From: Candidatus Acidiferrum sp.
Lineage (GTDB): Bacteria; Acidobacteriota; Terriglobia; Acidiferrales; UBA7541
Length of the DNA: 64,000 nucleotides
NCBI GenBank assembly: GCA_041476465.1
Contig: JBGOTL010000001.1
Span: 25,724 to 89,723, forward strand
Reading direction: 5' to 3'
Shown piece by piece: positions 31,738 through 33,885 of the stretch. The notes below the pieces were generated by a model. That model was not told the origin of the DNA, ran no database searches, and saw nothing but the letters and a program-made list of their open reading frames with translations. Position 1 is the first letter of the stretch, and each line of letters opens with the position of its first letter. The position numbers and the translations under genes were made by a program.

Positions 31738-32679
31738 CTAGGGAGCCGGCGTCTGAGCGAGTGGGTAGCCTCGTTCGCGCCAGGCTTGCAGCCCGCCCTG
31801 CAGGGGACGTATGCGTTTGATGCCTTGTTTCCTGAGGAGCAGCGCCACACGGGCGCTGGTGGCTTCGTTGGGTCAAGTGCAATAGAGAATGATTTCGCGG
31901 TCTTGCGGCAAGCGATCGTTCTTCTCCTGAAGTTCCTTGGCGTCCATGCGGAAGGCGCCTGGTATTGTCTCGGGGTCAGCTTCGAAATCCAAGGAGTGGC
32001 GAAGATCCACGATGACCAGCTCTTCGCCGGCGTCGATCTTTTCTTTTAATTCTTCCACGGTCATGCGAGAGATACGCAGTTCGCGGAGGAATCGCTGCCG
32101 CGCAATGAATTTCCATGCGATGTAAGCTAGCAGGCCGCCGATGAGGATCACCAGCAGCCAGCCGCCGAGGGCCGCGGCATGCTCCGCAACGCGTTCGATC
32201 TGCCCGCTGAAGGCGTAGCCGAGGCCGAGGAAGCTGAAAGCCCAGAGGAACGAACCAAGGACATCGAAAAGGAGAAAACGATTCAGCCGCATGTGAAAGA
32301 TTCCGGCAAGCGGCGGAGCGATAGTGCTGAGGCCCGGGAGAAACTTGGCGAAGAGCAGGGAACGAGCGCCCTGCTTCGCGAAAACCCCTTCCGTGCGCCG
32401 GACGCAGGAATCGGGTTCGAGCGAGATTCTGCAGAGTAACTGGAGAATCTTAATGCCCTTGGCGCGGCCGAGTTGATACCACAGCAAATCGGCGGTGATC
32501 GCCGCCAGAACGACGGCAAACAGGGAAGCAAAAAAACTCATCCGGCCTGTGCCGGCCAGCGCTCCAGCCGCGAGAAGCAGAGGAAGCGCGGGAACGGGGA
32601 GACCAAGCTGTTCCGCGAAGACCCACGCAAGCAAGACAACGTATCCATGATGGACTAGAAATTCCAGGGTGCTGTGCAT
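31738..32679 (-). CDS. DedA/VTT membrane protein fused to a rhodanese domain; probable selenoprotein (TGA at 31875-31873 read as Sec, residue 269 of 313)
   Basis: The ORF track stops at ...IILYCT*. The same frame continues PNEATSARVALLLRKQGIKRIRPLQGGLQAWRERGYPLAQTPAP* (TAG 31740-38), completing the rhodanese fold. Confidence 0.88.
31840..31858 (-). promoter_or_regulatory. Bacterial SECIS-like stem-loop
   Basis: CAGCGCC-CGUGU-GGCGCUG: perfect 7-bp stem, 5-nt loop with G in position 2, loop starts 21 nt after the UGA. Confidence 0.78.
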
Positions 32680-32704: not shown

Positions 32705-33310
32705 TTACTTCGCGGCGAAAGGGGCAGTACGCCCCCAGCTCCCGCTCATAACAAATTCACGGATAGCCTTGCGGGAGCGAGGAGCTGATTCGCGCTCCTT
32801 GTAAGGCTCCGGCAGTGAAGCGGGATCGCCTGCATATCCAATGGTCATGACGGAGACAGGATCCCAGCCGTTGGGAATGGCAAAAACTTCGCGCGCTTTC
32901 TCGACGTCATATCCCGCCATCTGATGCACGAACAAACTGCGCGCGGTTGCTTCCAGGCTGAGTAGCATGGTGGCGGCCCCGACATCGGAGAATGCATTGC
33001 GGTTTGGCGTTCCGTTTTTATGAAAGGCAAGCTCGGCAACAGAAAGCACAAGCACGGGAGCCTGCCGGGCCCATTTGGCATTGAACTCCACGAGAATGCC
33101 AATCATCTTCTCATAGTTTTCCGGGTCGTCTTTTGTAGCGATGAGATAGGCCCACGGTTGTTCGTTGCTGCTTGACGGCGCCCAGCGCGCGGCTTCGAAC
33201 AAGCTGCGCAGAATCTCCGGCGATACGGGTTTTTCGGAGAAGGCCCGGGGGCTCCAGCGGTTGCGGATGAGATTGTGAACCGGAAATTCAGTTTCAGCCG
33301 GCTTTTGCAT
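32705..33310 (-). CDS. Nitroreductase family protein
   Basis: IRNRWSPRAFS, AARWAPSSSNEQPW, HQMAG, IGY, R.RK. Confidence 0.93.
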   Translation of the reverse strand: MQKPAETEFPVHNLIRNRWSPRAFSEKPVSPEILRSLFEAARWAPSSSNEQPWAYLIATKDDPENYEKMIGILVEFNAKWARQAPVLVLSVAELAFHKNGTPNRNAFSDVGAATMLLSLEATARSLFVHQMAGYDVEKAREVFAIPNGWDPVSVMTIGYAGDPASLPEPYKERESAPRSRKAIREFVMSGSWGRTAPFAAK

Positions 33311-33388
33311 GGTTTTGCCTCGCTGCTTTGGATGAAAAAATAGCCACGGGCGGTACGTGAAAACCCCCGCGACAAATGCGCGGACAGG

Positions 33389-33850
33389 TTATTCCGGTTC
33401 GCCCTGCTGCACTTCTTGCAGAAGTTCGGCGAGGACTTTCAAGCGCGCGGCGGTCATATGCCGGAACTGGCGCTTGTGAGCCTCGCGAACCGGCTGGTCG
33501 AGAGTTTTTAAAATGTCCAGGCCTTGCGCGGTAATGCGCGTCTTGACGACCCGGCGATCATCGGTCTGGCGCTCCCGGGTGATCCAGCCGCGCTTTTCCA
33601 TGCGGTCGAGGAGACGCGTCATATCCGGGTCATGCGAGATCATCCGTTCGATGATGCTGCGGCAGGGGAGACCCTGGGGTTCCGCGCCGCGGAGGATACG
33701 CAGTACGTTGTATTGTGCGCCGGTAAGGCCGCGGGCCTTCAGCAGTTGATCGGCTTTCTGGCCGAGCGCGTTTGCCGTTCGCAGCAAGGCGACAAAGATT
33801 TCGTTTTCCAGGGAGGGAGCGAAGCCGGCATGGGGGGAGCGCGAACGCAT
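33389..33850 (-). CDS. MarR family transcriptional regulator
   Basis: LTGAQYNVLRILRGA, PDMTRLLDRME.RGWI.R.R...DRRVV winged helix. Confidence 0.95.
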   Translation of the reverse strand: MRSRSPHAGFAPSLENEIFVALLRTANALGQKADQLLKARGLTGAQYNVLRILRGAEPQGLPCRSIIERMISHDPDMTRLLDRMEKRGWITRERQTDDRRVVKTRITAQGLDILKTLDQPVREAHKRQFRHMTAARLKVLAELLQEVQQGEPE

Positions 33851-33856
33851 GGCTCG

Positions 33857-33885
33857 ACAATAGTCGTTATAACGATTAGTGTCAA
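33857..33885 (-). promoter_or_regulatory. marR promoter with palindromic operator; leaderless start
   Basis: TTGACA(33885-80)-N17-TATTGT(33862-57), 6 nt, then ATG; perfect palindrome TCGTTATAACGA (33864-75) in the spacer. Confidence 0.8.

Follow-up and report, generated by a model that had tools for sequence, protein, structure and literature searches.

The DNA considered here is a 64,000-nucleotide stretch of a contig from Candidatus Acidiferrum sp. (JBGOTL010000001.1, positions 25,724 to 89,723), which we call the window. Its minus strand carries a gene that joins a DedA(VTT) membrane domain to a rhodanese domain (Table 1). Gene callers end this gene after 268 codons, at an in-frame TGA, and comparison with related loci indicates that this codon, UGA269 in the message, very probably encodes selenocysteine (Sec) within a selenoprotein of 313 residues. 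An earlier note on the same DNA had proposed a hidden selenoprotein here, and the features from which it argued are all found at the locus. The open reading frame (ORF) of 268 amino acids (aa) ends in REIILYCT-TGA and is followed in the same frame by 44 further open codons (PNEATSARVALLLRKQGIKRIRPLQGGLQAWRERGYPLAQTPAP) and then TAG, so that the read-through product has 313 aa; IRPLQGGLQAWR is an example of a peptide that lies C-terminal to residue 269 in this product. In Pfam terms, the TGA splits the rhodanese domain in two, and the domain is complete only with read-through. The note had also claimed that the residues past the UGA supply what the shorter product lacks, and Pfam, the structural model and the Foldseek matches described below agree that they provide the missing rhodanese helices and the GG..W motif. 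Finally, the hairpin that it had described, CAGCGCC-CGUGU-GGCGCUG with a G at the second position of the loop, is present; the stem starts 14 nucleotides (nt) and the loop 21 nt after the UGA, and the minimum free energy is −12.5 kcal/mol.

Decoding of the in-frame UGA

Homologues were sought in a collection of 5.8 billion proteins, and the best 120 were examined. Seventy of these are full length, and they read LYCTCPNEA at the relevant loop in 67 cases and close variants of it in the other three, in agreement with the YC(S/T)CPNE loop that the earlier note had given for homologues. The remaining 50 had been called at exactly 268 aa, ending in LYCT. The full-length Cys homologues are 309 to 343 aa long, with 68 to 80% identity. 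A separate scan of one genome per species yielded 80 related loci, at which the aligned codon is TGA in 26 and TGC or TGT in 54; with the window included, 27 of 81 loci carry TGA. Thus, the UGA stands opposite the second cysteine of the loop, giving the CxU motif that had been predicted. This TGA is shared by 26 further species-level genomes, which excludes a sequencing error and a nonsense mutation private to this assembly.

The TGA forms come mostly from Ca. Acidoferrum/Acidiferrum and other Terriglobia, together with two metagenome-assembled genomes (MAGs) of Bryobacterales and one of Rokuibacteriota. A maximum-likelihood tree built from 75 family members shows the Sec and Cys forms interleaved, with nine Sec/Cys changes by parsimony, at least three of which are forced by well-supported branches, and the nearest relatives of the window gene are all Sec forms. 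This interleaving is typical of the usual Sec/Cys turnover of selenoprotein families. The repeated use of either Sec or Cys at residue 269 marks the residue as chemically critical, and the family offers natural Sec/Cys pairs for enzymology.

Selection on either side of the UGA was compared through the proportions of nonsynonymous (pN) and synonymous (pS) differences, computed by the Nei-Gojobori method among 20 close TGA forms. In the 60 codons upstream of the UGA, pN is 0.143 and pS is 0.673, and in codons +12 to +37, which lie past the hairpin, the values are 0.164 and 0.604. Purifying selection on the protein is therefore equal on either side of the UGA in TGA forms. Each of the 26 TGA loci examined has 43 to 68 open codons past the TGA, with RPLxGGLxAWR conserved. 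Decay of the 44 downstream codons among UGA-bearing homologues, which the earlier note had raised as a sign against its proposal, is not seen.

The hairpin behaves differently in the two forms of the gene. Among UGA forms it is almost invariant down to 48% protein identity; it is kept, for instance, at five loci whose proteins are 48 to 59% identical to that of the window (L060, L061, L076, L082 and L095) and in the Rokuibacteriota MAG (L068). Over the seven hairpin codons, TGA forms have a pS of 0.133 and the Cys forms from their clade one of 0.517, and the third-position entropy in the stem-loop is 0 to 0.4 bits in TGA forms and 0.8 to 1.9 bits in Cys forms, whereas the third positions that flank the hairpin vary freely in both. 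The synonymous sites of the hairpin are thus frozen in UGA forms only, with no such constraint in Cys forms. In the alignment of 26 UGA sequences, 97.1% of cells are paired, compared with 19 to 70% when the 3′ arm is slid. The stem is closed by C-G in 17 sequences, by G-C in three and by U-G in one, and two other pairs have G-U wobbles. A hairpin near the UGA with a small, G-containing apical loop is therefore conserved together with the UGA, as is expected of a selenocysteine insertion sequence (SECIS). Like the SECIS of the E. coli fdhF type, it lies just past the UGA and inside the coding sequence and has a small apical loop that contains a G; in contrast to that element, it is unrelated in sequence and has no predicted bulged U. 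As the hairpin is nearly invariant at about 50% protein identity, it would be a clean case of a SECIS that constrains the protein sequence (S-A-R-V-A-L), and it could help to define SelB recognition in Acidobacteriota.

Several Cys forms (L049, L051 and L074) keep the 7-bp stem about 18 to 36 nt after the Cys codon, with altered loops (CACCU, CACGU and CGGGU). These stems look like fossil SECIS elements left after a recent replacement of Sec by Cys.

The machinery for Sec insertion, which the earlier note had named as a check on its proposal, is encoded in the same genome (3.8 Mb, 95% complete, 213 contigs). The matches to selD (354 bits), selB (362 bits) and selA (565 bits) are all above the curated cut-offs, and a tRNA-SeC(tca) gene is present. 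Among the relatives, selA was found in 23 of 25 UGA-form genomes; the two without it have 2.0 and 3.7 Mb, and incompleteness may be behind the absence, their completeness not being reported.

The rhodanese loop and the membrane domain

The C-terminal domain matches the Pfam rhodanese family PF00581 with 50.8 bits (gathering threshold 22.2). Its best curated match is NF041203 (rhodanese_LYCAU), at 97 bits over positions 16 to 124 of the 126 in the profile, and the LYC-x-U/C motif of that family is present, as LYCTU in the window and as LYCTC in the Cys orthologues. An AlphaFold2 model built with 35 homologues (mean predicted local distance difference test score, 83.6) is helical through residue 203 and then forms an alpha/beta domain, for which Foldseek finds the rhodanese structures 3ILM, 3GK5, 3TP9, 5VE3 and E. 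coli YgaP 5HBO. In this model, the central strand spans residues 262 to 266 (EIILY) and the next helix starts at residue 272, so that Cys267 takes the canonical nucleophile position and Sec269 follows at +2. The catalytic Cys of a rhodanese opens a six-residue loop that runs from the central strand to a helix; profile alignments with 6PFZ, 3TP9 and 5VE3 likewise favour Cys267 once two residues are inserted in this loop, which is then two residues longer than usual. The earlier note had put the UGA in the rhodanese catalytic loop, and this location stands, but the canonical nucleophile position goes to Cys267 in the model and in most of the profile alignments. Cys267, Thr268, Cys/Sec269, Pro270, Asn271 and Glu272 are all invariant in the aligned family. 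The Sec residue of a selenoprotein normally marks its reactive position, and hence the most economical reading of the loop is a Cys267-Sec269 pair that acts as a selenenylsulfide or as a sulfane carrier.

The membrane domain belongs to the VTT family by its Pfam score (PF09335, 55.4 bits, cut-off 33.9), but it falls far below the cut-offs of the NCBIfam equivalogs for DedA (58 versus 236 bits) and UptA (53 versus 250 bits). It shares the VTT/DedA fold with E. coli YghB/YqjA and UptA, which are COG0586 DedA proteins proposed to be undecaprenyl-phosphate flippases. A review of the DedA subfamily (PMC10127716) names Arg130 and Arg136 as basic residues of YghB and mentions conserved residues that are likely to bind protons. 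Over the membrane domain, our protein aligns to E. coli YghB with 31% identity. We take the proton-binding residues to be Glu39 and Asp51, as in the mutagenesis literature on YqjA and YghB. In the alignment, Glu39 has its counterpart in Glu23, Asp51 is lost in a deletion of three residues, Lys112 takes the place of Arg130 and Ser118 that of Arg136. Three of the four YghB residues described as essential are thus missing from the domain, and we would not file the protein as an undecaprenyl-phosphate flippase. The domain has invariant residues specific to its own family, namely Asp64, Cys83, Glu88, Asp90 and Cys92. After the last helix comes a strongly basic linker, KFIARQRFLRELR, and under the positive-inside rule the C-terminal rhodanese domain is probably cytoplasmic.

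Two of these family-invariant residues, Cys83 and Cys92, lie in LLCRISLEPDSCVRR (residues 83 to 92, window positions 32404 to 32433) and are absent from E. coli YghB. In the AlphaFold2 model they lie in a part of lower confidence. They could serve as a thiol relay with Cys267 and Sec269.

These elements suggest the following course of events. During translation, a complex of SelB, GTP and Sec-tRNA(Sec) would bind the hairpin 14 nt past UGA269, and the codon would then be read as selenocysteine, giving the 313-residue protein. Its N-terminal part of about 200 residues would form a divergent DedA/VTT integral-membrane domain, which the basic linker would connect to a rhodanese domain in the cytoplasm. 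The Cys267-Thr-Sec269 loop would most likely be a Cys/Sec redox site or a site for the transfer of sulfane sulfur or selenium, with a selenenylsulfide or a perselenide/persulfide as the intermediate at Cys267/Sec269, and the Sec form would be expected to be more reactive than the Cys orthologues.

Competing readings and known relatives

We infer that the UGA is read as Sec from four things taken together: its pairing with Cys, the selection downstream of it, the hairpin linked to it and the presence of the Sec machinery. Several observations weigh against this reading or against parts of it. The stability of the hairpin is not significant in itself, as a 43-nt segment gives a z-score of −1.24 with 27 of 200 shuffled sequences folding equally well, and the 81-nt context, with a z-score of 0.18, is unexceptional for G+C-rich sequence; the argument from the hairpin is therefore purely comparative. 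Compensatory change is found at one base pair only, and the other stem pairs never vary, which fits an element recognised by a protein, yet invariant pairs by themselves are silent on pairing. The selA gene is found in 23 of 25 Cys-form genomes as well, so its presence does not discriminate between the forms. In the rhodanese domain, the score against NF041203 (97.4 bits when the protein itself is scored, 93 bits in a scan of the genome) is below the cut-off of 115, and a gapless alignment to 6MXV puts residue 269 on the catalytic Cys, contrary to the placement of Cys267 there. As for function, the case is built on the identity of the domains and on a neighbourhood whose conservation is confined to the Acidoferrum-like clade.

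The alternatives fare worse. If the gene were a pseudogene, or if the TGA had arisen by nonsense mutation or assembly error and were a real stop followed by a decaying remnant of the frame, one would expect what the databases in fact hold, since gene callers stop the ORF at 268 aa and the product stands truncated in NCBI record P0070 and in many JGI records. However, 26 further species-level genomes, each assembled independently, have the same TGA, as do 50 of the best 120 database clusters, purifying selection downstream equals that upstream, and the conserved hairpin accompanies TGA only, so that we give this explanation hardly any probability and regard it as effectively refuted. A stable hairpin that follows a stop codon can, as a general matter, favour read-through, and it is on this ground that one might think of read-through without Sec, in which the hairpin stimulates the insertion of Trp, Cys or Gly, or of a selenium-sensing switch that makes mostly a truncated, DedA-only protein. 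Both are very unlikely in our view: the residue aligned with this codon is specifically an invariant Cys, the genome has the complete selA, selB, selC and selD set, and the curated family closest to the protein is itself a Sec family that shares its CxU motif. The extreme conservation of the hairpin region at the nucleotide level would also suit an arrangement with two products, a functional DedA protein of 268 aa and 44 downstream codons that are kept as an independent small ORF or as an RNA element. Such an arrangement is scarcely credible: there is neither a start codon nor a ribosome-binding context for a separate ORF, past the hairpin it is the protein sequence that is conserved (pN is low while pS is high), the stretch that follows the UGA supplies exactly those helices and that GG..W motif which the rhodanese fold would otherwise lack, and the Cys orthologues encode one continuous protein.

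A more ambitious proposal accepts selenocysteine at residue 269 and makes the protein a dedicated membrane device for the trafficking of selenium or sulfane sulfur. The divergent DedA domain could carry selenite, or a chalcogen species related to it, through the membrane, the Cys-x-Sec loop, possibly by way of Cys83/Cys92, could capture the chalcogen as a selenotrisulfide or perselenide, and the captured chalcogen could be delivered to SelD or detoxified. According to a 2026 review of the prokaryotic selenoproteome (PMC13188914), a specific prokaryotic selenium-uptake system has not been identified, and a link between DedA and selenite goes back to Ledgham et al. (2005), as cited in PMC10127716. 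If the proposal were true, it would supply both the uptake system and a mechanism for the DedA-selenite link. We consider it unlikely, and the earlier suggestion of a transporter or flippase coupled to sulfur or selenium transfer, with a link to DedA-dependent selenite handling, is speculation.

With residue 269 read as Sec, the protein joins a known group. The earlier note's hidden selenoprotein is strongly supported as a selenoprotein, but it does not found a new class, as a CxU rhodanese family, NF041203, has already been described. The 2026 review, which calls itself the most comprehensive inventory, counts five forms of rhodanese selenoprotein, among them "form 3, NF041203, CxU" and TsoB, a fusion of rhodanese and DsbD, and none of the five is fused to DedA. 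NF041203 shares with our protein the LYC-x-U motif and the mixture of Cys and Sec members. It differs in being a stand-alone family of about 126 aa, whereas here a DedA membrane domain of some 200 residues precedes the rhodanese domain in one fused protein, and in the motif for which it is named, LYCAU, as opposed to LYCTU-PNE here. In another known selenoprotein, too, a rhodanese domain is linked with a membrane-protein module, but our protein scores only 17.7 bits against its cut-off of 805, and that selenoprotein has a UxxxxU motif with two Sec residues and a different membrane partner. The Cys-type DedA-rhodanese fusions are orthologous (68 to 80% identity over the full length), with the same architecture and synteny; they differ in having TGC or TGT at residue 269 and in lacking the constrained hairpin, and PGAP names them "DedA family protein/thiosulfate sulfurtransferase GlpE". 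Thus, we see the gene as a Sec-containing, membrane-fused variant of both the CxU rhodanese selenoproteins and the Cys-type DedA-rhodanese fusions, and the inventory would gain a membrane-anchored rhodanese selenoprotein.

Fusions of COG0586 with PF00581 have been noted before, and PMC10127716 calls their connection to undecaprenyl phosphate, and what the rhodanese domain does in them, unclear. DedA is not mentioned in the 2026 review, the BSepDB paper or the deep-Sep paper, and VTT is mentioned in neither of the first two. No work that combines DedA, rhodanese and selenoprotein was found in the searchable literature, outside which a prior report remains possible; the searchable literature likewise gave nothing that combines DedA, selenocysteine and Acidobacteria, and among the listed papers that name both DedA and selenoprotein none describes a DedA selenoprotein.

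The variant is widespread in soil Acidobacteriota and systematically mis-annotated. As the earlier note had expected, standard pipelines truncate the gene: NCBI record P0070 has 268 aa and is named "VTT domain-containing protein", and many truncated JGI records read only "membrane protein DedA". About one third of the family would thus encode a 313-aa selenoprotein while databases hold a 268-aa "DedA" or "VTT domain-containing" protein, the affected groups being Ca. Acidoferrum/Acidiferrum, other Terriglobia, Bryobacterales and a Rokuibacteriota MAG. Because the score against NF041203 is below the cut-off, annotation pipelines miss the fused form, and the remedy is a new model or a lower cut-off for it.

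Gene neighbourhood and further candidates

The Sec system appears to have other uses in this organism. A codon-usage scan of the genome for genes with an in-frame TGA gave two more candidates, which are likely to be its second and third selenoprotein genes. One encodes an AhpD-like protein with a CHYU motif, and a hairpin (CGCAG-AGUUU-CUGCG) starts 11 nt after its UGA, with the loop 16 nt after it. The other encodes a protein of the deiodinase family, whose 185 bits against NF038285 are below the cut-off of 250. As both carry classic motifs at the TGA, the Sec system would be used beyond the DedA-rhodanese gene. No gene for a formate dehydrogenase alpha subunit (FdhA) with an in-frame TGA was found in the genome, and the selenoproteome appears to consist of small redox proteins and not of the classic FdhA. 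A genome-wide scan for a TGA followed by a hairpin returned 590 matches, and after tightening only the DedA-rhodanese gene looked real; with so many matches in a G+C-rich genome, such a scan is uninformative about other SECIS elements.

A rhodanese match about 5.5 kb from selD was considered as a tRNA 2-selenouridine synthase and rejected, since it belongs to a protein with an MBL fold and a rhodanese domain. No MnmH-type gene was seen when this match, on contig C79, was checked.

Table 1. Positions of the DedA-rhodanese gene, its neighbours and other genes of the same genome. Plain numbers are window positions; C and L prefixes denote contigs and extracted loci.
Feature	Location	Strand	Basis
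DedA(VTT)-rhodanese gene, predicted selenoprotein; 313 codons including Sec269, plus TAG stop	31738..32679	minus	Read-through translation
ATG start	32679	minus	
ORF as called by gene callers, 268 codons, ending ...DREIILYCT, then TGA	32679..31873	minus	
In-frame TGA, read as Sec269 in the LYC-T-U-PNE active-site loop	31873..31875	minus	Codon alignment
TAG, proposed true stop	31738..31740	minus	Read-through translation
VTT/DedA membrane domain, residues 29-155	32215..32595	minus	Pfam PF09335
Rhodanese domain, residues 207-302, interrupted by the UGA	31774..32061	minus	Pfam PF00581
SECIS-type hairpin within the coding sequence; 7-bp stem CAGCGCC/GGCGCUG, loop CGUGU at 31847-31851	31840..31858	minus	
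Nitroreductase-family gene	32705..33310	minus	Pfam PF00881
MarR-family regulator, head of the same-strand cluster	33389..33850	minus	Pfam PF01047
Sigma-70-like promoter match TTGACA-17-TATTGT, just upstream of marR	33857..33885	minus	Consensus scan, weak (1 found, 0.8 expected)
tRNA-SeC(tca), same genome	C15:29356-29454		
AhpD-like peroxidase-related protein, in-frame TGA in CHYU	C149:1484-2065	minus	TIGR01926, 107 bits, above cut-off
Deiodinase-family protein, in-frame TGA in FGSYT-U-PPF	C27:3490-4473	minus	NF038285
465-aa MBL-fold + rhodanese protein, persulfide-dioxygenase/rhodanese fusion type	C79:5508-6905 (= L102:358-1755)		

The nitroreductase gene lies 25 nt upstream of the DedA-rhodanese gene on the same strand, and the two are probably in one operon; from the other side, dcd converges on the DedA-rhodanese gene. 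The order MarR, nitroreductase, DedA-rhodanese and dcd is kept in about 36 close relatives, whether the gene is of the Sec or the Cys form. Among more distant relatives, none of the neighbours found is widely shared: Acidobacteriaceae have OsmC and DUF6125 near the gene, and some genomes have an FMN reductase there, so the argument from context holds for the close clade only. There, the cluster of MarR, in the relatives YceI, nitroreductase and DedA-rhodanese is suggestive of a role in redox or electrophile stress at the membrane.

Some of the related loci come from MAGs labelled as Eisenbacteria, Dormiibacterota, Dongiaceae or Saccharimonadales (L021, L022, L036, L039, L040, L041 and L048). 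They are 71 to 79% identical and fully syntenic to Acidoferrum loci, and the taxonomy given for these SMAG assemblies seems unreliable.

Close relatives also carry a YceI-like gene of the polyisoprenoid-binding family between marR and the nitroreductase gene (for example, at L020:1656-2264). At this position, the window has a gap of 78 bp (33311 to 33388); the gene was thus either lost here or gained in the relatives.

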